Positions 5,933 to 22,782 of a stretch of DNA of 22,782 nt are shown here, one piece after another. The DNA lies in the IMG/VR virus record IMGVR_UViG_2778261160_000006, positions 1 through 22,782 of that record; one strand, 5' to 3'. The DNA is from a virus (taxonomy: Duplodnaviria; Heunggongvirae; Uroviricota; Caudoviricetes). The translations under genes were made by a program, and so were the position numbers. Every line of letters starts with the position of its first letter. Within the stretch, counting starts at the first letter, position 1. Under the pieces are notes generated by a model. The model was given only the letters and a program-made list of their open reading frames with translations. It was not told where the DNA came from and did no database searches.

Positions 5933-7015
5933 ATGAAAAAATTAACAGTGGCAATTTCTGCTGTAGCTGCATCAGTACTGATGGCGATGTCTGCTCAGGC
6001 AGCTGAAATTTATAATAAAGACAGTAACAAGCTGGATCTGTACGGGAAAGTTAATGCTAAGCACTACTTCTCCTCTAATGATGCAGATGATGGTGATACT
6101 ACTTATGCCCGTCTTGGCTTCAAAGGTGAAACCCAAATCAACGATCAACTGACTGGTTTCGGTCAGTGGGAATATGAATTCAAAGGCAACCGCGCTGAAT
6201 CTCAAGGTTCCTCCAAAGATAAAACCCGTCTTGCCTTCGCTGGCCTGAAATTCGGTGACTACGGCTCCATCGATTACGGCCGTAACTACGGTGTAGCATA
6301 CGACATCGGTGCGTGGACTGACGTCCTGCCAGAATTCGGTGGTGACACTTGGACTCAAACAGATGTGTTCATGACTGGTCGCACCACTGGTGTTGCAACT
6401 TATCGTAACAACGACTTCTTTGGTCTGGTTGATGGTCTGAACTTTGCTGCTCAGTATCAGGGTAAAAATGACCGCACTGACGTAACTGAAGCTAATGGTG
6501 ATGGTTTCGGTTTCTCCACTACTTATGAGTATGAAGGATTCGGTGTAGGTGCAACCTATGCTAAATCTGATCGCACTAATAATCAGGTTATCTACGGTAA
6601 CAACGGTCTGAATGCTTCTGGTCAAAATGCTGAAGTATGGGCAGCTGGTCTGAAATATGATGCGAACAACATCTATCTGGCCACCACCTATTCTGAAACC
6701 CAGAACATGACTGTTTTTGGTAATAACCATATTGCCAACAAAGCACAAAACTTCGAAGCTGTTGCACAATATCAGTTCGACTTCGGCCTGCGTCCATCCG
6801 TTGCTTACCTGCATTCTAAAGGAAAAGACTTGGGTGTTTGGGGTGATCAGGACCTGGTTGAATATGTTGATGTAGGTGCAACCTATTACTTCAACAAAAA
6901 TATGTCCACTTTTGTTGACTACAAAATCAACCTGATTGATAAGAGCGATTTCACGAAAGCATCTGGCGTTGCTACCGATGATATCGTTGCTGTAGGTATG
7001 GTTTACCAGTTCTAA
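5933..7015 (+). CDS. nmpC: Outer-membrane general porin of the OmpC/OmpF/PhoE family (NmpC / OmpD-like), 360 aa, apparently intact
   Basis: Signal peptide [23 protein letters not shown], the AEIYNKD...LDLYGK porin N-terminus, a beta-barrel-type sequence and the C-terminal ...VGMVYQF motif. It is a moron between Q and the lysis genes, on the opposite strand. Confidence 0.9.
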
Positions 7016-10523: not shown

Positions 10524-12050
10524 TCAAAAATAAACCTCACCATCAACCATATATTTGAGAGCACTTATCGCCTGCTGGGCGGATATTACTTTCATTAAAG
10601 GATAGTGTTTAAAAACAATGCCATTCATAAAATAGATATCACAGGTTTTATTATCCGTATTAATTATGATTTTTTCGAATGTTTTATAGGCAAGTGTACG
10701 GCATAACTCTCGTCCATTTTTACTGGTTAAGTCAATAGCATAAAAATCACTGAATGAATTTACACCTTTACTCTTCAAAGTTTTCAATGATACCGAAGCC
10801 CTTCTTAATTCCTTATCTAATAGTCTTATTTTCTCTGCTATAGCGGTAACTTCAGGCGCGACAGACAATGCAACGATTAAATTATTAATTTTCATCTGAA
10901 GCTCAATAATTTTTAACTCTAAAGTTTCATTAGCATCTTTCTTGTTTTCAACTGGTTGAATTTTGCTACAATTAAAAAGCAATTCATTAATGATATTATA
11001 ATCAACCAAATCTCTTTTTATTGATGGCCTGTCACATCGATGTAATCTTCTCATCGGACAAACATAATAGCCATGCAAACTTCCAGATACCGCATGAACA
11101 ATCATGGTATTACCACAAGCCTCACACTTCATAACTGTTCGAAGTAGATTTATTAGCATAGGATTCTTGCTACTATTGCTAATACCAAAAGGTGCCAACC
11201 GAATTTCCTGTACAGCGTAAAACAAATCATCTGATATGACTCTGGGATAATAGCCAGCGATTTCACTTATCCCTTTCCCTCTTGCACGATATGAAGGTAC
11301 GCATATACCTATCAGAGCTTTATTCGCTAATAATTTTTCAATTACAGAAGGTCCCCATGCACTTTCTTTTCCTGAGAAATTCTTTACAGCATGATCATTT
11401 AAATACTTGGCTATTGCATTCAATGAGCGCCTTTCCATCCTGAGTTTAAAAATTAGCTCAATAGTTTTCACCCTGTCGGGGTCTGGAACAAAAGCCGTTC
11501 TTTTGTCATCTAAGGAGAGCCATCTCGGACAAGACGCCGTCATAATCGTACCTGATTCCAGTGCATCCTGCCGTTTTTTCTTCCATGATAATTTAACCCG
11601 ACTTGACTTTATCTCGCTTTCTTCATTTGCCCTTTGTGCTATAAGTATGGCTTTTATTAATGAATATGGCTCATTCAAAGAGTCAATATTATAGACTGTA
11701 TTGTCGCAAAGAGTTATAACATCAATACCGTGATTCAAAATCAATTTCAGACGTTCAATCGCTTCACCGACTTTTTCTCTTGAAAGTCTGTCCAGACTTT
11801 CAACTAACAATGTAGTTCCTGGCAATATATAACCATGCTCTATAGCATCTAAAAATTCCGAAAAAGCTCCTGATTGTGCATGCTTTCCTTTGAATGCACT
11901 TAATCCTAAATCTTCATATGTTATGGTATCAAGATAATAATCACTATTTACCTTTAACCATTCAGCAATAAGTCTTCTCTGTCGGTTTAATGAGTCGCCA
12001 GACATCTGACCTGGTGATGAAAATCGCATATATGCTATGGCTTTTTTCAT
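10524..12050 (-). CDS. ybcK: Large serine recombinase (resolvase/invertase-type catalytic N-domain, recombinase domain and Cys-rich zinc-ribbon region), 508 aa
   Basis: N-terminal catalytic motif AIAYMRFSSPGQ with the nucleophilic Ser, a Cys cluster CEACGNT...YYVCP...HRC, and a C-terminal coiled coil. The gene is strongly AT-rich, and the length and sequence match DLP12 YbcK. Confidence 0.88.
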   Translation of the reverse strand: MKKAIAYMRFSSPGQMSGDSLNRQRRLIAEWLKVNSDYYLDTITYEDLGLSAFKGKHAQSGAFSEFLDAIEHGYILPGTTLLVESLDRLSREKVGEAIERLKLILNHGIDVITLCDNTVYNIDSLNEPYSLIKAILIAQRANEESEIKSSRVKLSWKKKRQDALESGTIMTASCPRWLSLDDKRTAFVPDPDRVKTIELIFKLRMERRSLNAIAKYLNDHAVKNFSGKESAWGPSVIEKLLANKALIGICVPSYRARGKGISEIAGYYPRVISDDLFYAVQEIRLAPFGISNSSKNPMLINLLRTVMKCEACGNTMIVHAVSGSLHGYYVCPMRRLHRCDRPSIKRDLVDYNIINELLFNCSKIQPVENKKDANETLELKIIELQMKINNLIVALSVAPEVTAIAEKIRLLDKELRRASVSLKTLKSKGVNSFSDFYAIDLTSKNGRELCRTLAYKTFEKIIINTDNKTCDIYFMNGIVFKHYPLMKVISAQQAISALKYMVDGEVYF

Positions 12051-12235
12051 GGTGACACCTGCTAACGTATGCTTTTATAAACCTTAGTGGTGGGATATAA
12101 TTTTTGTTTAATTTTTATTTAAAAAGACAATTAAGGTCACATTATCTTGAATATACAACAATAATCGTATTGCAATTTTCTTACGCCATAATCTTGAAAG
12201 CACAAAAGAACACATAAAAAAATAAAGACATTAAC

Positions 12236-12275
12236 AAAAAGCATAAAACGAGGCTCATATAAATATAAGAGCCTC
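12236..12275 (-). terminator. Rho-independent terminator downstream of emrE (GAGGCTC stem, AT-rich loop, U-tract)
   Basis: 7-bp perfect inverted repeat at 12250-12256 / 12269-12275 followed on the - strand by GTTTTATGCTTTTTG. Confidence 0.5.
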
Positions 12276-12306
12276 CATATTTTAGTCGTTTAGAAACAAA
12301 TTATTT

Positions 12307-12639
12307 TTAATGTGGTGTGCTTCGTGACAATAGATTAATAACCAACACACCGGCACAAATCAACATCATGCCTATAATGGCTGGCAGGTCCAGCCGTTGG
12401 CCGAAAAGTCCCCATGACAGTAAGCTAATCAGGACAATACCGACTCCTGACCAGATAGCATAAGCAATCCCTGTAGGAATATAAGCCAGCGTCTGAGCTA
12501 ATAACCAGAATGATGCACAATAACAAATAATTGTACCAACAGATGGCCATAACCGTGTAAAACCTTCTGAAAACTTCATTAAGGTTGTACCAATGACCTC
12601 TGCAAGTATTGCACCACCAAGATAAATATAAGGGTTCAT
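12307..12639 (-). CDS. emrE: Small multidrug resistance (SMR) efflux transporter EmrE, 110 aa
   Basis: MNPYIYLGGAILAEVIGTTLMKFSEGFTRLWPSVGTIICYCASFWLLAQTLAYIPTGIAYAIWSGVGIVLISLLSWG... has four TM helices and the conserved Glu14. The ORF-track N-terminal extension is probably not translated. Confidence 0.92.
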   Translation of the reverse strand: MNPYIYLGGAILAEVIGTTLMKFSEGFTRLWPSVGTIICYCASFWLLAQTLAYIPTGIAYAIWSGVGIVLISLLSWGLFGQRLDLPAIIGMMLICAGVLVINLLSRSTPH

Positions 12640-12798
12640 AGCATATTCTTTCCTGTTCAAACTGGAGAGAATTGTACTACAGTTTGAACTCAACTCACCT
12701 GTTTCATCATTGTGTACCCATTGATGTTCTTTTATATACCCTCAATACCCGTTTCATCGCGGCACTCTGGCGACACTCCTTAAAAATCAGATTCGTGC

Positions 12799-14718: not shown

Positions 14719-15264
14719 TCATATTGCCCCCAGCATGGTGGTGACCATCGCCATCAATGGACCAGCCAGATCCGGGTCCACTCTAAACATCGACACAATG
14801 CCTTCACTCATCTCCTTCAGTTTCTGGTGGCGTGGTGCGTTGAGAATGACAGCCTGTTTTGCCTCACTGAGTTCCTTTTCCATTTCAGCCAACCTAGCCA
14901 TAAAGCTATCCTGCTCAACCAGGTAACCGCGATATTCCAGCGGTAGTACCGCCAGAATTGCCGGGGTCAGTTCACGCACGTTATTTCGGTATTTTTCAGA
15001 ATCGAATTTGTTATCGAGGAAGCGGAACAGCTTCTGGCGTGCACGGCTGACATCATCAGGGAAATCGATGGTGCCGCCGCCCTGCTCCCGATACTCATTC
15101 ACAATGAGTGCGGCAACAACATCCTGATTATCTGCAGCCGACCAGGCGCGGACGGCATCACGGATTTTTTCGTGGCCTGGAGCTTGTTTTGTTTGAGAAC
15201 GATTTATCACCGCAGTCGGGCTAAATCCGCTAGTCTGTTGGTATGTAAGTGGTTGCATAGTCAT
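14719..15264 (-). CDS. YdaT-like protein (CII functional analogue position), 181 aa
   Basis: It sits between the cro-like gene and O. The motifs EYREQGGGTIDFP and LTPAILAVLPLEYR resemble Rac prophage YdaT as I recall it; assignment is tentative. Confidence 0.55.
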   Translation of the reverse strand: MTMQPLTYQQTSGFSPTAVINRSQTKQAPGHEKIRDAVRAWSAADNQDVVAALIVNEYREQGGGTIDFPDDVSRARQKLFRFLDNKFDSEKYRNNVRELTPAILAVLPLEYRGYLVEQDSFMARLAEMEKELSEAKQAVILNAPRHQKLKEMSEGIVSMFRVDPDLAGPLMAMVTTMLGAI

Positions 15265-15516: not shown

Positions 15517-15626
15517 TATCAATTCCTATTGGTATTGCAACGAATAAATAATAGCAATGCGTATTAATCATAACAATAGCAAAACGTGTTTTGACCATCA
15601 ATACGCAAGCGTATAAATTAAAACTT
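15517..15626. promoter_or_regulatory. OR-like divergent control region: repeated AATAGCAA / TTGCTATT operator-like motifs, a putative pR on the - strand (-35 TTGTTA, 17 nt, -10 TATTAT) and a putative pRM on the + strand (-35 TTGACC, 16 nt, -10 ATAAAT) ending 8 nt before the cI ATG
   Basis: Read directly from the sequence. Similar ATAGC-containing motifs recur at the OL-like site at 17400-17450, and both regulators share the recognition-helix motif GVAQPT(V/I)WR. Confidence 0.55.
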
Positions 15627-16319
15627 ATGAAAAAAGAAACTCTTGCTGATCGCTTAAACCTAGCGATGGAACAATCTGGAATGTCTCAAGGCGCTCTTGC
15701 AAAGGCGTCTGGCGTAGCTCAACCCACAATCTGGAGACTGACAAGCGGCAACGCGCGCGGCTCAACAAAAATTGTTGAAATAGCTAATGCATTGGGTGTT
15801 CGAACAGAATGGCTCTCATCAGGCATAGGCCCGATGAGAAATGACGGTCAACAATTAGGGAAGCCTACTGCCAACCATCCCAAATACTTCAAGATTGACG
15901 TTCTTGATATAGAAGTGAGTGCCGGGCCGGGAGTCATCAACCGTGAGTTTGTAGAAGTTCTACGCTCGGTTGAGTACTCGTTTGACGATGCTCGTCACAT
16001 GTTCGATGGTAGGAAGGCAGAAAATATCCGCATCATTAACGTGCGTGGTGACAGCATGTCAGGAACGATCGAACCAGGTGATCTGCTGTTCGTTGATATC
16101 ACGGTTAAATCTTTCGACGGTGATGGCATCTATGCGTTTCTGTACGACGACACCGCCCATGTAAAGCGCCTGCAAATGATGAAGGATAAGCTGCTGGTTA
16201 TCTCTGATAACAAGAGCTACTCACCGTGGGACCCGATCGAGAAAGACGAGATGAACCGGGTGTTCATCTTCGGTAAGGTTATTGGGAGCATGCCCCAGAC
16301 GTACAGGAAACATGGATAA
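15627..16319 (+). CDS. cI: CI-like prophage repressor: N-terminal XRE-type HTH plus C-terminal LexA/S24 autopeptidase domain, 230 aa from MKKETL
   Basis: HTH MSQGALAKASGVAQPTIWRL, an Ala-Gly candidate cleavage site (EVSAGPG), the Ser nucleophile in VRGDSMSGTIEPGD and the Lys in HVKRL. The ORF-track TTG start at 15591 coincides with the putative -35 element. Confidence 0.85.
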   Translation: MKKETLADRLNLAMEQSGMSQGALAKASGVAQPTIWRLTSGNARGSTKIVEIANALGVRTEWLSSGIGPMRNDGQQLGKPTANHPKYFKIDVLDIEVSAGPGVINREFVEVLRSVEYSFDDARHMFDGRKAENIRIINVRGDSMSGTIEPGDLLFVDITVKSFDGDGIYAFLYDDTAHVKRLQMMKDKLLVISDNKSYSPWDPIEKDEMNRVFIFGKVIGSMPQTYRKHG

Positions 16320-16385: not shown

Positions 16386-17249
16386 ATGGATTGTGACGCT
16401 TTACAGGATATAAAAATCTCTCTTAGGTATGACGGAAAAGATGCTTTAAATCATGAAATAGATTTGAACTGCCTAGGAGAATCCCTAAAGGGTTTTTCTA
16501 AAGTTCTCTCAACAGCAGCTTCTTTCTCTGTTACACAAAAATATAGTAAATACATTAATTATCAGGAAGTTAAGGTTTACGCACGCGAAGCAAAAGCTAA
16601 CTGCTTTACTCTTGAAGCAGTTCTTAACTTCGCCACTCAGAACCAGTTGTTCTCGGGGATCGCCGCAACTATACTTGGCGCAATACTACAATATATTTTT
16701 GCGAGAAATTCTAACAAGAAAGATGAAATGAAAGCTTTGCAGCAGTCACTTGAAAAGGCCATAGAGGCACTAGGAAACAAGGATGCTGGAACCATTGATA
16801 AGTTGATCTCTTTGATTGACCGAATGGCTGTAGAGCTTCGCCCCTCTGTAAGGCAGGCAGTATCACCTATTGGTAATACTTGCGATCAGATAAGTGTTGC
16901 AACAAATGTTGACGGCTGCCTTCTAAAAGTTAACGAGAGAGATAAAGCTGAAATTGATAGGCTTGATGATGATGAAGTTCTCGGTCTTCGTGAGTATCGT
17001 GCTTTTCTTACAGAATTTGATGCACAAAATATGACAGCTAAAATAATTTTAGATGGTGATGACTCAAAAAAGAGAATCACTGCTGAAATTAGCGATCCAG
17101 CTGCAGGAAAGAAGAATAACCCGTATATTAGAGCTCTTAGTGCATATATATCAACCAAAGGTGATCCATCTGCAGTATTCACTATAACCGCAAAGGCTAC
17201 TGTTAAAAAAGGCCAGATAAACAGGTTATTTATTGTAGATGCGAAATGA
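16386..17249 (+). CDS. Hypothetical 287-aa protein in the rexAB position (directly downstream of cI, same strand); AT-rich, with one central hydrophobic segment and a predicted coiled-coil region; candidate lysogen-expressed exclusion or defence gene
   Basis: A clean ORF with markedly lower GC than cI, sitting 66 nt after the cI stop and followed by a strong intrinsic terminator. It has a hydrophobic stretch [19 protein letters not shown] and no similarity to RexA/RexB that I can see. Confidence 0.6.
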
Positions 17250-18314: not shown

Positions 18315-19100
18315 ATGAGTACAGCACTCGCAACGCTGGCAGGGAAGCTGGCTGAACGTGTCGGCATGGATTCTGTCGACCCACAGGAACTGATCACCAC
18401 TCTTCGCCAGACGGCATTTAAAGGTGATGCCAGCGATGCGCAGTTCATCGCATTGTTGATCGTCGCCAACCAGTACGGCCTTAATCCGTGGACGAAAGAA
18501 ATTTACGCCTTCCCTGATAAGCAGAACGGCATTGTTCCGGTGGTGGGCGTTGATGGCTGGTCCCGCATCATCAATGAAAACCAGCAGTTTGATGGCATGG
18601 ACTTTGAGCAGGACAATGAATCCTGTACATGCCGGATTTACCGCAAGGACCGTAATCATCCGATCTGCGTTACCGAATGGATGGATGAATGCCGCCGCGA
18701 ACCATTCAAAACCCGCGAAGGCAGAGAAATCACGGGGCCGTGGCAGTCGCATCCCAAACGGATGTTACGGCATAAAGCCATGATTCAGTGTGCCCGTCTG
18801 GCCTTCGGATTTGCTGGTATCTATGACAAGGATGAAGCCGAGCGCATTGTCGAAAATACTGCATACACTGCAGAACGTCAGCCAGAACGCGACATCACTC
18901 CGGTTAACGATGAAACCATGCAGGAGATTAACACTCTGCTGATCGCCCTGGATAAAACATGGGATGACGACTTATTGCCGCTCTGTTCCCAGATATTTCG
19001 CCGCGACATTCGCGCATCGTCAGAACTGACACAGGCCGAAGCAGTGAAAGCTCTTGGATTCCTGAAACAGAAAGCCACTGAGCAGAAGGTGGCAGCATGA
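18315..19100 (+). CDS. bet: Bet (Red-beta) single-strand annealing recombinase, 261 aa
   Basis: [66 protein letters not shown]... is near-identical to lambda Bet. Confidence 0.95.
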
Positions 19101-19777
19101 CACCGGACATTATCCTGCAGCGTACCGGGATCGACGTGAGAGCTGTCGAACAGGGGGATGATGCATGGCACAAATTACGGCTCGGCGTCATCACCGCTTC
19201 AGAAGTTCACAACGTGATAGCAAAGCCCCGATCAGGAAAGAAGTGGCCTGACATGAAAATGTCCTACTTCCACACCCTGCTGGCTGAGGTTTGCACCGGT
19301 GTGGCTCCGGAAGTTAACGCTAAAGCGCTGGCCTGGGGAAAACAGTACGAGAACGACGCCAGAACCCTGTTTGAGTTCACTTCCGGCGTAAATGTTATTG
19401 AATCCCCGATCATCTATCGCGACGAAAGTATGCGCACCGCCTGCTCTCCCGATGGTTTATGCAGTGACGGCAATGGCCTTGAGCTGAAATGCCCGTTTAC
19501 CTCCCGGGATTTCATGAAGTTCCGGCTCGGTGGTTTCGAGGCCATAAAGTCGGCTTACATGGCCCAGGTGCAGTACAGCATGTGGGTGACGCGAAAAGAT
19601 GCCTGGTACTTTGCCAACTATGACCCGCGTATGAAGCGTGAAGGCCTGCATTATGTCGTGGTTGAGCGGGATGAAAAGTACATGGCGAGTTTTGACGAGA
19701 TGGTGCCGGAGTTCATCGAAAAAATGGACGAGGCACTGGCTGAAATTGGTTTTGTATTTGGGGAGCAATGGCGATGA
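19097..19777 (+). CDS. exo: Exo (Red-alpha) 5'-3' exonuclease, 226 aa
   Basis: [62 protein letters not shown]... is near-identical to lambda Exo. Its start overlaps the bet stop. Confidence 0.95.
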
Positions 19778-19935
19778 AGCATCCTCACGATAATATCCGG
19801 GTAGGCACGATCACTTTCGTCTACTCCGTTACAAAGCGAGGCTGGATATTTCCCGGCCTTTCTGTTATCCGAAATCCCCTGAAAGCACAGCGGCTGGCTG
19901 AGGAGATAAATAATAAACGGGGGCTGTATGACTGA
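19774..19935 (+). CDS. Hypothetical small protein, 53 aa, translationally coupled between exo and the methyltransferase
   Basis: Hand-translated [56 protein letters not shown]. Its ATG overlaps the exo stop (ATGA) and its stop overlaps the methyltransferase start. Confidence 0.4.
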
Positions 19936-20485
19936 TTTCACCGGAAGCAATACTCCTGCCGAACATCGCGACAGCTGGCGCACACCACCAGAGATTTTTG
20001 CTGCGCTTAATGCAGAGTTCGTTTTTCAACTTGATGCTGCCGCCAGCGAAAAAAACCGACTATGTCGGCTTTTTATCTCACAGGAGCAGAACACATTAAC
20101 CACTTCATGGCCTGAAGCAATGGGATATGCCTCTGGTTATGTCTGGTTGAATCCACCATACAGCAATATTTCCCCTTTTGTGAAAAAGGCAGCCACTGAA
20201 AACAAATTCAGTAGTGTGGGATGTGTAATGTTATTGCCTGCTGACACATCTGTCGGATGGTTTCATGAAGCGATACAAACCGCCAGTGAGGTCAGATTCA
20301 TCACGACAGGACGACTGGCATTTATTAACCCACTCACTGAGAAAACCGTCAGTGGAAATAATAAAGGCTCGATGCTCATTATCTGGCACCCATACCCCCG
20401 TACACACTGCCGCTTTACGACCGTTGATCGTGGAGAGTTGATGGCGTTCGGCTCAAGGATTCTTGCCCGTCGGGAGGCTGCATGA
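19928..20485 (+). CDS. Phage-type DNA N6-adenine methyltransferase (Dam family), 185 aa
   Basis: Catalytic NPPY motif in context (GYVWLNPPYSNISPFVKKA) and the FQLDAAAS N-terminal motif typical of phage orphan Dam methyltransferases. It has no adjacent restriction enzyme gene. Confidence 0.75.
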   Translation: MTDFTGSNTPAEHRDSWRTPPEIFAALNAEFVFQLDAAASEKNRLCRLFISQEQNTLTTSWPEAMGYASGYVWLNPPYSNISPFVKKAATENKFSSVGCVMLLPADTSVGWFHEAIQTASEVRFITTGRLAFINPLTEKTVSGNNKGSMLIIWHPYPRTHCRFTTVDRGELMAFGSRILARREAA

Positions 20486-20561
20486 CAACCACGGAATGCA
20501 TTTTTCTGGCAGCGGGCTTCATATTCTGTGTGCTTATGCTTGCCGACATGGGTCTTGTTCA

Positions 20562-20777
20562 ATGACACCTCAGCAGGAAAACGCCCTTCGCAGCATTGCC
20601 CGTCAGGCTAATTCTGAAATCAAAAAAGCCAGACAGCAGTTTCCGGATAAAAACGTCGATGACATTTGCCGTAGCGTACTGAAGAAGCACCGCGAAACGG
20701 TAACGCTGATGGGATTCACACCGACTCATTTAAGCCTGGCGATCGGCATGTTAAACGGCGTCTTTAAGGAACGGTGA
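20562..20777 (+). CDS. Hypothetical protein, about 71 aa from MTPQQENALRS
   Basis: ORF in the early-left operon whose likely ATG overlaps the stop of an upstream 27-codon hydrophobic micro-ORF (20482-20565). Function unknown. Confidence 0.4.
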   Translation: MTPQQENALRSIARQANSEIKKARQQFPDKNVDDICRSVLKKHRETVTLMGFTPTHLSLAIGMLNGVFKER

Positions 20778-20875
20778 ACATGAAAAGCAAAATCATCAGG
20801 GAGCTACAGGCTCCTTTTTTATTGTTCGCATTCATCCTCAAGCGTATTAACCAACAATTCAGGGATTAATGGAAG

Positions 20876-21094
20876 ATGGCAGACATCATTGATTCAGCAT
20901 CAGAAATCGAAGAATTACAGCGCAATACAGCAATAAAAATGCGTCGTCTGAACTACCAGACTGTATCCGCAACTCATTGTTGTGAGTGTGGCGATCCGAT
21001 AGATGAGCGAAGACGCCTGGCTGTTCAGGGTTGTCGGACTTGTGCAAGTTGCCAGGAGGAGATCGAACTTAAGAACAAACAATGGGGACTGTGA
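20876..21094 (+). CDS. TraR/DksA-family C4-type zinc-finger protein, 72 aa
   Basis: C-terminal Cys motifs (CCECGDPI...CRTCASCQ) in a ~70-aa protein, as in the TraR-like proteins of lambdoid phages. Confidence 0.75.
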   Translation: MADIIDSASEIEELQRNTAIKMRRLNYQTVSATHCCECGDPIDERRRLAVQGCRTCASCQEEIELKNKQWGL

Positions 21095-21141
21095 TGGCCT
21101 CAAAGCAGCAAATTTCAACATCGTCCAACTGAGGTGTAAAA

Positions 21142-21420
21142 ATGTTCAGAATCATTTTTCCTAACACCTGGTACGTCGACCACCACGGCACTCCCTGCAA
21201 AATCCTGCGTTCTACCCACAACAAAGTTCACTACATCCGAAAAGGCAGAACATGTATCGCCAGCATGTTCCGCTTTAATCATGACTTTGAACCTGTGAAT
21301 AAAGCTGATGCAGATCGGATAGCAGAAGAGATCGAAACGGCAGAACACATTAAGAAGTTACGTGACATGCGTTCAAAAAGCAGAGGTAACCATGGAATCA
21401 TACAGCCTCACACTCGATGA
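21142..21420 (+). CDS. Hypothetical protein, 92 aa, upstream of xis
   Basis: ORF MFRIIFPNTWYVDHHGTPCKILRSTHNKVHYIRKGRTCIASMFRFNHDFEP...; I recognise no family. Confidence 0.4.
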   Translation: MFRIIFPNTWYVDHHGTPCKILRSTHNKVHYIRKGRTCIASMFRFNHDFEPVNKADADRIAEEIETAEHIKKLRDMRSKSRGNHGIIQPHTR

Positions 21421-21763
21421 GGCCTGTCAGTTTCTTAAGATATCCAGACCAACCGCCACCAACTGGATACGAACAGGCCGCCTACAGGCAACACGTAAAG
21501 ATCCAACCAAGCCAAAATCTCCTTACCTCACAACACGGCAAGCCTGCATTGCGGCGCTTCAGTCTCCGCTGCATACTGTCCAGGTGAGCGCGGGTGATGG
21601 CATAACAGAGGAAAGAAAATGTCACTCTTCCGCAGAAATGAAATATGGTATGCCTCGTATTCGCTCCCGGGCGGGAAACGAATTAAGGAATCTCTTGGCA
21701 CAAAGGACAAGCGGCAAGCTCAGGAGTTGCACGACAAGCGAAAAGCAGAACTCTGGCGAGTAG
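21392..21763 (+). CDS. xis: Excisionase-like HTH protein (AlpA/Xis type), up to 123 aa from MESYSL, overlapping the int start
   Basis: HTH motif [26 protein letters not shown] immediately upstream of int. The reading frame continues 145 nt into int, so the true C-terminus is uncertain. Confidence 0.6.
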
Positions 21764-22782
21764 AAAAGCTAGGGGATTTACCTGATGTCACTTTTGAAGA
21801 GGCCTGCCTAAGATGGCTTGAGGAAAAAGCTGATAAAAAATCTCTCGATTCAGATAAAAGCCGGATTGAGTTCTGGCTTGAACATTTTGAGGGTATAAGG
21901 CTTAAAGATATCTCGGAGGCAAAGATTTACTCTGCTGTAAGCAGAATGCATAACAGAAAGACGAAAGAAATATGGAAACAGAAAGTTCAGGCCGCCATCA
22001 GGAAAGGTAAAGAACTGCCTGTTTATGAACCAAAGCCAGTATCAACTCAGACAAAGGCAAAGCATCTTGCCATGATAAAGGCCATTCTCCGTGCTGCAGA
22101 ACGCGACTGGAAGTGGCTGGAAAAAGCGCCTGTCATCAAGATACCAGCGGTCAGAAACAAGCGAGTCAGATGGCTGGAAAAGGAGGAAGCAAAACGCCTT
22201 ATTGATGAGTGCCCCGAACCACTGAAATCTGTCGTCAAGTTTGCGCTGGCAACTGGTCTGAGAAAGTCGAACATCATAAATCTGGAATGGCAACAAATCG
22301 ACATGCAGCGACGAGTTGCCTGGGTGAATCCAGAAGAGAGCAAATCAAACCGCGCCATTGGTGTGGCGCTGAACGATACCGCCTGTAAAGTGTTGCGTGA
22401 TCAAATAGGCAAGCATCACAAATGGGTGTTTGTACATACCAAGGCGGCTAAGCGAGCAGATGGAACATCAACGCCTGCGGTCAGGAAGATGCGCATCGAC
22501 AGCAAGACATCATGGCTATCAGCTTGTCGTCGTGCAGGAATTGAAGATTTCCGTTTCCATGACCTCAGACACACCTGGGCAAGCTGGCTGATTCAGTCAG
22601 GCGTCCCATTATCAGTGCTTCAGGAAATGGGCGGATGGGAGTCCATAGAAATGGTTCGTAGGTATGCTCACCTTGCGCCTAATCATTTGACAGAGCATGC
22701 GAGGAAAATAGACGACATTTTTGGTGATAATGTCCCAAATATGTCCCACTCTGGAATTATGGAGGATATAAAGAAGGCGTAA
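21619..22782 (+). CDS. int: Tyrosine integrase (DLP12 IntD-like), 387 aa
   Basis: [46 protein letters not shown]... with the C-terminal catalytic region [39 protein letters not shown] (R...HxxR...Y). The window ends at its stop, so att is not in view. Confidence 0.93.

Follow-up and report, generated by a model that had tools for sequence, protein, structure and literature searches.

The closest described counterpart of the DNA analyzed here is the stretch between exo and xis of phage lambda and the Shiga toxin (Stx) phages, which is known as the "exo-xis region" and has a literature of its own (PMC8614690, PMC4195576, PMC6213356, PMC5575149), including work by the Wegrzyn and Donaldson laboratories. 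Its canonical conserved block consists of orf60a, orf63, orf61, orf73 and ea22. We analyzed a 22,782-nucleotide (nt) viral sequence (IMG/VR record IMGVR_UViG_2778261160_000006; hereafter the window), which is a DLP12-like lambdoid Escherichia coli prophage, and in particular positions 19774-20875. This part of the window is the exo-xis segment of the pL (leftward early) operon. In it, an orphan phage Dam-type methyltransferase gene takes the place of the entire orf63 coding sequence, start and stop codons included. The segment also holds a 27-codon open reading frame (ORF), p27, that on comparison of related prophages looks like a real coding sequence separate from orf61, and a 29/31-codon ORF, p31, that would form a translated spacer carrying the conserved predicted terminator t2.

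Read along the pL operon, the window presents gam, bet, exo, the studied region, a xis-like gene and int. The exo-xis block was sought as exo followed by orf60a (DUF1317), orf63 (DUF1382), orf61 and the TraR-like orf73; orf60a, orf61 and orf73 were present while orf63 was absent, with Dam instead, and the locus is a variant of the lambda block. It shares with the lambda/Stx region the operon position, the overlapping-ORF layout and the predicted terminators t1 and t2. The flanking genes have more than 95% DNA identity, the 27-amino acid (aa) peptide is identical to that of lambda, and the lambda 31-aa ORF is near-identical. Besides carrying Dam in place of orf63, the window differs in a 53-aa rather than 60-aa Orf60a, whose C-terminus is made unlike the lambda form by a difference of 1 nt where the cassette joins; in a full-length orf61, which in lambda is shortened by an extra A in an A-run; and in the absence of ea22 and ea8.5, with orf73 followed by DUF4222, the xis-like gene and intD. 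Phage PhiR30_1 is 99.2% identical to the region and is annotated there as exo, orf60a, methyltransferase, orf61 and TraR, and a prophage of E. coli A8, located at the tRNA-Arg gene argU with intD, is 99.8% identical.

The ORFs, overlaps and NPPY motif that a preliminary description had placed in 19774-20875 were all found there in the ORF list and the raw sequence. From exo through orf73, every junction is either a 4-8 nt overlap or a 6-nt gap (Table 1): the exo TGA overlaps the ATG at 19774 (ATGA), the Dam start overlaps the 53-aa ORF by 8 nt (ATGACTGA), and 6 nt separate the p31 stop (20869) from the orf73 start (20876). This spacing suggests that after induction or infection these ORFs would be read as a single translationally coupled chain, and the same chain was found again in hundreds of prophages. 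The preliminary description had reasoned from such tight coupling to real translation of four "micro-ORFs". The start/stop overlaps do chain the ORFs and comparative evidence favors translation of the 27-codon ORF, but the small ORFs around Dam are orf60a, p27 and orf61, and two of the four, the 53-aa orf60a (DUF1317) and the 71-aa orf61, are known, routinely annotated genes with published deletion phenotypes (PMC6213356). The 29-codon ORF exists and is also present in lambda, but it holds an already predicted terminator, t2 (PMC4195576), and is probably the 31-aa peptide reported in the brief statement of a review (PMC8614690). The expectation that these ORFs are too small for gene callers was borne out in part, in that RefSeq/PGAP leaves the 27- and 29/31-codon ORFs uncalled, although GenBank and UniProt contain scattered entries for both under the name "hypothetical protein".

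Coding signal was measured in a dataset of 343 loci and 198 haplotypes, in which each polymorphic allele was counted once and then classified per frame. Over 20482-20562, the p27 frame showed 17 synonymous to 11 nonsynonymous alleles (expected synonymous fraction 0.23-0.25; P = 2e-5 to 8e-5), and 10:2 for alleles found in at least two haplotypes. The frame in which orf61 has been extended upstream gave 6:21 for all alleles and 0:11 for alleles in at least two haplotypes, the third sense frame gave 5:22 and 2:9, and the antisense frames over p27 held no coding signal (5:14, 7:11 and 4:14). For orf60a, the synonymous to nonsynonymous ratio was likewise that of a gene, at 22:16 against 9:29 and 7:31 in the other two frames. 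Because the loci were retrieved by Orf61 protein identity, the ratio for orf61 itself is inflated in this sample; the counts for p27, p31, orf60a and orf73 are free of that bias. The p27 ORF was intact in 250 of the 251 loci that have the stretch, the single exception lacking just the last codon, and lambda encodes the identical peptide at 31008-30925. Its Shine-Dalgarno (SD) sequence, GGGAGG, is the strongest in the chain at -10.3 kcal/mol.

These results bear directly on the start of orf61. In the lambda reference annotation, orf61 runs from an ATG at 31024, with the p27 stretch read in another frame as the Orf61 N-terminus, and the 93-aa Orf61 of phi24B and 933W and the PHROG 303 profile also include this upstream extension. 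The ATG of the extension frame (frame B) lacks an SD (-1.5 kcal/mol), and a common allele carries a TGA stop in that frame just 5' of the internal ATG. E. coli alleles of one class lack p27, and in these the internal ATG, preceded by a GAGG SD of its own, is again the orf61 start; a 33%-identical Orf61 homolog (locus L192) starts at the same MTP, there directly overlapping the Dam stop. Orf61 is most likely a 71-aa protein with its true start at ATG 20562, and the annotated Orf61 N-terminus of lambda and phi24B is most likely p27 read in the wrong frame. As the own SD of orf61 is weak (-3.1 kcal/mol), its translation is probably coupled to termination of p27; termination at the shared ATGA would hand ribosomes to a gene nearly without an SD.

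The p27 peptide, MTTTECIFLAAGFIFCVLMLADMGLVQ, is hydrophobic, with one stretch long enough for a membrane helix, and its product is probably a small membrane-inserted peptide. In its 27 residues, its single membrane-helix-length stretch and its having been missed by annotation, p27 resembles small hydrophobic proteins of fewer than 50 aa (inner-membrane proteins and type I toxin peptides), which like p27 are found through conservation rather than homology. It differs from them in matching no named family, in having no evident antisense RNA or separate promoter, and in being embedded in an operon and coupled at both sides. Searches of Pfam, PHROGs and NCBIfam returned no match for p27 or p31. 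Deletion of the phi24B exo-xis region has been reported to reduce degP and htpX the most among the chaperone/stress genes of Table 4 in that study (PMC10789677); this drop is circumstantial and is compatible with a membrane peptide made in the exo-xis region.

The 185-aa product of the cassette matched PF05869 with 190.4 bits (cut-off 28.1; E = 2.5e-56) over profile positions 1-168 of 169 and the TIGR01712 equivalog with 166.7 bits (cut-off 97), in agreement with its preliminary assignment as a Dam-type N6-adenine methyltransferase with an intact NPPY. This catalytic motif IV occupies residues 75-78 (nt 20150-20161); N75-P76-P77-Y78 are invariant in 27 aligned homologs, as is D36 of the LDAAA motif, and the remaining residues invariant in the family are likewise intact. 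An AlphaFold model (predicted local distance difference test, 86.8; predicted template modeling score, 0.86) predicts a Rossmann-type methyltransferase fold, for which the best fold matches in the PDB were the N6-adenosine methyltransferase CAPAM (6irx/6irv; TM-score 0.5-0.6) and also TrmM and E. coli Dam, while a PDB sequence search found no relative. Pfam and PADLOC scans detected no restriction endonuclease among the larger ORFs of the window, and the best PADLOC match of Dam was the orphan methyltransferase model (oMTase; E = 4.7e-32), so the preliminary finding of no partner restriction enzyme stands at that scope. The protein resembles the phage Dam family PF05869/TIGR01712, which includes the Dam proteins of coliphage T1, Haemophilus phage HP1 and Stx phage VT-2 (M.EcoVT2Dam), in being orphan and phage-borne, with a single domain of ~170-200 aa and an NPPY motif. 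Its nearest characterized relatives are the Dam of Stx/lambdoid phages, which lies in the nin region and not in the exo-xis region and is just 46.6% identical, and those of T1-like phages (35-46%). The VT-2 Dam target is stated as GATC (PMC6602927), and by analogy with the T1 and VT-2 enzymes, GATC is probably also the target here.

Alignment with the Dam-less phage ev243 shows identity up to a shared ATG and again from a shared ATGA, with Dam exactly in the place of orf63. Among the first 105 related loci fetched, Dam occupied this place in 9 and orf63 in ~90. The Dam configuration, defined as at least 80% of the segment, occurs in 244 of 5426 complete E. coli genomes (~4.5%), and parts of the segment occur in 3370. 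Dam homologs with 65-82% identity are frequent in Enterobacter, Klebsiella, Citrobacter and Atlantibacter. In the loci fetched from prophages of Enterobacter, Klebsiella and Atlantibacter they have the same position, after recombination genes and a 52-54-aa ORF (DUF1317 in L194) that overlaps their start and before a next gene that overlaps them in turn, with TraR, xis and int farther on. Linkage between p27 and Dam was considered and rejected, as Dam homologs of other genera have other 3' genes and p27 is mostly found with orf63. Dam had been described as a moron. It is an in-operon allelic cassette without its own promoter rather than a classical moron, since no promoter-like site was found on the + strand in 19000-21700 and both ends of the gene overlap their neighbors. 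The methyltransferase as such adds little, being an orphan phage Dam of the usual kind at a site already known to vary in a known operon, a site that also bears Dam in related prophages of several genera.

In lambda, the pL operon is silent in the lysogen and fires upon induction or infection. By this logic, Dam would be made early in lytic growth, when pL fires, and not in the lysogen. By analogy with its relatives, it would most likely methylate phage and host DNA at adenine, and this methylation would shield replicating phage DNA from methylation-sensitive restriction. Expression after induction or infection fits self-protection of replicating phage DNA better than host epigenetic control.

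The p31 ORF was intact in 165 of 169 E. coli-type loci. Across ~226 instances, its frame was open in ~98%, its start almost always overlapped the stop of differing upstream genes (~220 instances), and its stop lay 2-6 nt before the next start. In lambda, a 31-aa version that starts with ATG lies at 30715-30620, and Enterobacter-type prophages have a diverged version, e.g., MKALITRSLSRPFLLLAFTFNRINRQFREH, in whose 3' half 15 synonymous to 19 nonsynonymous changes were counted against ~0.22-0.27 expected, including first-position CGN/AGR synonymous changes. The lambda version is probably the 31-aa peptide "orf2313" that ribosome profiling detected in the exo-xis block, according to the one-sentence summary of a review (PMC8614690); this match rests only on length and region. 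The t2 hairpin that p31 overlaps has three stem versions, GGGAGC/GCUCCC, GGUCGC/GCGGCC and GGCCUCU/AGAGGCU, with compensatory changes across genera and T5-7 after each. Among 55 unique variants, 51 fold at -8 kcal/mol or below, against 2.7% of shuffles, and lambda mRNA levels are lower 3' of t2 (PMC4195576). In our reading of these sequences, the t2 RNA hairpin appears to be the main selected feature, and translation across the hairpin appears to be kept.

Ribosomes repress a terminator that lies a short distance after a translated gene (PMC4824070), and ribosomes crossing p31 would likewise suppress the t2 hairpin, which would tie orf73 expression to upstream translation. The arrangement recalls leader-peptide attenuators and ribosome-suppressed terminators, in that a short ORF overlaps a hairpin and U-tract just 5' of orf73 and a ribosome on the hairpin should prevent termination. 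It differs in that the terminator lies inside the ORF, not after it, and in that N-antitermination is expected to override terminators in the pL operon anyway. A leader-ORF and terminator module of this kind (..PFLLLAFTFNRINRQF..) was also seen 5' of non-TraR genes in Enterobacter-type prophages (L202, L214, L230, L241, L244 and others), and behaves as a portable inter-gene module.

Table 1. Features of the exo-orf73 chain, with positions in the window and the evidence for each
Feature	Positions	Strand	Evidence
exo (lambda exonuclease, YqaJ family)	19097..19777	+	Pfam YqaJ E = 2e-29; annotated exonuclease in PhiR30_1, ev243 and E. coli A8; synonymous:nonsynonymous 158:85
orf60a homolog (DUF1317), 53 aa	19774..19935	+	Pfam DUF1317 E = 4e-33; phrog_1998; PGAP-annotated; SD GGGGAG, -7.7 kcal/mol
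t1 terminator-like hairpin inside orf60a	19838..19860	+	Terminator scan; sequence of the predicted terminator t1 of lambda and phi24B (PMC4195576, Table 4)
Orphan phage Dam-type N6-adenine methyltransferase, 185 aa, orf63 slot	19928..20485	+	PF05869 E = 2.5e-56
p27, unannotated 27-codon hydrophobic ORF	20482..20565	+	ATGA overlaps at both ends; SD GGGAGG
orf61 homolog, 71 aa	20562..20777	+	phrog_303 E = 5e-36; PGAP 71-aa coding sequence; ATGA overlap with p27
p31	20774..20869	+	31 codons from GTG 20774 (GTGA overlap) or 29 from ATG 20780
t2 intrinsic-terminator-like hairpin and T-tract inside p31	20798..20822	+	Terminator scan; t2 of PMC4195576
orf73 homolog, TraR/DksA-type C4 zinc-finger protein	20876..21094	+	Pfam zf-dskA_traR E = 2.8e-9; phrog_54; synonymous:nonsynonymous 26:24

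We consider the account as a whole probable, that is, an exo-xis segment with a Dam cassette, a coupled chain, a real p27, and p31 as a translated spacer carrying t2. Several observations weigh against parts of it. The specificity of Dam is extrapolated from relatives with just 35-47% identity, and its allele is nearly clonal, with 9 polymorphic alleles in 15 loci (3 synonymous, 6 nonsynonymous), too few to judge selection. All p27 sequences come from closely related E. coli prophages that are at least ~90% identical; no diverged p27 homolog was present in the sample, and one allele class of E. coli as well as the other genera lack p27. The one-sentence summary of lambda ribosome profiling lists new 7-aa and 31-aa peptides in this region and no 27-aa peptide (PMC8614690). 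For p31, selection at the peptide level is weak (E. coli ratio 12:19; P = 0.008 unweighted and 0.075 with weighting for transitions), the synonymous excess is not significant in a larger pooled/mixed set, and the residues encoded over the stem change along with the stem.

Three other explanations were weighed against this account. The 27-codon ORF could be a chance ORF and 20482-20565 the true 5' part of orf61 in the other frame, as in the lambda annotation and the 93-aa Orf61 of phi24B and 933W. This form is the current annotation, PHROG 303 takes it in, many database proteins are called in it (e.g., P0002, 93 aa, 1695 members), and the same profiling summary gives orf61 as expressed with no 27-aa peptide listed. 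Against it stand the prevalence of nonsynonymous alleles in the extension frame, the common TGA allele, the missing SD of the frame-B ATG, and the fact that the Dam allele of the window has no ATG for a long lambda-type orf61. PGAP also calls the 71-aa form, which is the start used by the alleles without the p27 stretch and by the 33%-identical homolog, and over-expression of annotated orf61 gave insoluble aggregates (PMC6213356). We regard this explanation as very improbable. Only slightly more credence can be given to the methyltransferase being a lysogenic-conversion moron, expressed from the resident prophage as a host epigenetic regulator or as standing protection against incoming restriction systems, an explanation that draws on its orphan status, on the variable and non-essential nature of a cassette found in so few genomes, and on the apparently defective state of the prophage (truncated terminase), whose retained genes might serve the host. 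The absence of a + strand promoter-like site and the overlaps at both ends speak against a moron, as does the exact replacement of orf63; moreover, Dam lies deep in the pL operon, 3' of an intact cI-type repressor gene, and by lambda regulation should be silent in the lysogen, where GATC methylation would in any case be redundant with the host's own Dam.

More weight, though well short of an even chance, attaches to the explanation that the 29/31-codon ORF does not function as a translated unit and that 20774-20875 is an intergenic terminator, t2, possibly together with an orf73 promoter, the open frame being incidental. The hairpin covaries and its T-tract is conserved in three stem versions, p31 residues over the stem follow the RNA, the synonymous excess is weak, and in four loci (L240, L207, L269, L263) the start is lost, the stop is lost or the frame is shifted while the hairpin is kept. 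Bloch et al. also predict a promoter, p1, along with t2 at this position (PMC4195576). Yet an incidental frame would have to remain open in ~98% of ~226 instances, with its start overlapping many different upstream stops and its stop so close to the next start; the Enterobacter-type 3' half shows its excess of synonymous changes, and a 31-aa peptide from the exo-xis block is named in the summary of lambda ribosome profiling. On balance, p31 as a translated, t2-carrying spacer is the reading we prefer.

Some further observations concern orf61 and its relatives. In lambda (L003, 30839-31024, compared with window 20620-20640), orf61 is shortened by an apparent extra A in an A-run (inferred A7 vs. 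A6), which turns ...EIKKARQQFPDKN... into ...EIKKSQTAVSG*; in most other prophages Orf61 reaches its full length of 71 aa. Many Orf61 homologs (P0007, P0010 and others) are named "cell division protein ZapA" in NCBI, a name that looks unsupported; Pfam and NCBIfam models gave no match. An IS3-family element with transposase ORFs lies inside orf61 of one E. coli locus (L109, JAOWOI010000001). Apparent "51-52% identical" Orf61 matches (P0069, P0075) came from frameshift-ridden assemblies (L107, L108) and were excluded, and P0036, with an inserted insertion sequence (IS), and P0023, from a prophage remnant, were excluded as diverged Orf61 homologs.

Within Dam, the C-terminus ...RREAA* (20465-20485) is largely conserved across genera (3' ends compared in L192 and L196). 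Its codons spell GGGAGG and ATGA, the ribosome-binding site and start of the next gene, whichever gene that is, so it may be the RNA that has been conserved. The Dam coding sequence also contains, at 20056-20068 (+), a short hairpin that resembles a terminator and has a T-run (CCGACTATGTCGG CTTTTTATCT). A terminator scan of the region found six terminator-like sites, with 2.5 +/- 1.5 expected, and Rfam gave no family at E up to 1 in 18900-21800. The orf73 homolog scored 53.9 bits against TIGR02419, below the 59.7-bit cut-off.

Lambda contamination in unrelated assemblies made up most of what the genome-collection scan returned and was left out of the counts. In loci L088-L101, lambda DNA with lambda's own +1 A orf61 frameshift occurs inside assemblies labeled Shewanella, Bradyrhizobium, Chromatium, Paenibacillus, Kitasatospora, Oceanobacillus and others; several of the lambda-bearing contigs are ~48.4-48.5 kb, and this DNA is most likely spike-in or contaminant lambda. 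DLP12 of E. coli K-12 was rejected as a comparison, as the segment is absent there and exoD abuts xisD; K-12 small-protein datasets are therefore of no help.

Elsewhere in the window, DLP12-type marks include an emrE-like gene, a ybcK-like recombinase, an nmpC-like porin and a truncated terminase. The DLP12-typical cargo at 5933-7015 (+) and 10524-12693 (-) comprises an OmpC/NmpC-type porin, a 508-aa serine recombinase (ybcK-like) and an EmrE-like small multidrug-resistance transporter. The large terminase subunit (120-2903, -) is just 560 aa and adjoins a tail-fiber-assembly gene, as in the defective K-12 DLP12, and because of this shortening and adjacency the prophage is probably defective, though its early region is intact. 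A 287-aa DUF7946 and DUF7947 protein is encoded at 16386-17249 (+), in the rexAB position, immediately 3' of and co-oriented with the cI-type repressor gene (15591-16319); it gave a weak PADLOC match to candidate system PDC-S42 (E = 1.5e-4) and may be a defense gene expressed in the lysogen. A protein with a YdaT_toxin domain is encoded at the cII position of the pR operon (14719-15264, -).

The p27 ORF and the resulting re-annotation of orf61 are only modestly new, and their useful outcome is an annotation correction in a model-phage region under genetic study by several laboratories. Published orf61 deletions replaced the annotated orf61 (PMC6213356), which in lambda spans p27, and therefore would have removed both genes. 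Structural models have been built on the 93-aa Orf61 (PMC8614690), and a wrong-frame N-terminus could explain both the difficulty in modeling Orf61 and its insoluble aggregates. We offer a broader view only tentatively, as a possibility we would not call probable: lambda and most E. coli lambdoid prophages may encode an unrecognized 27-residue inner-membrane peptide under the mis-annotated 5' end of orf61, made from the strongest ribosome-binding site of the block and loading ribosomes onto orf61, while separately p31 and its internal terminator may act as a portable, translation-gated module that sets the expression of orf73, a TraR-like RNA polymerase regulator. The terminator-in-ORF module before the TraR-like gene, conserved with compensatory changes across genera, provides a way to test whether translation and read-through are linked in the pL operon. 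If this broader view were true, the phenotypes published for "orf61" deletions, and the induction of the envelope-stress genes degP and htpX that depends on exo-xis, would in part reflect the p27 peptide.

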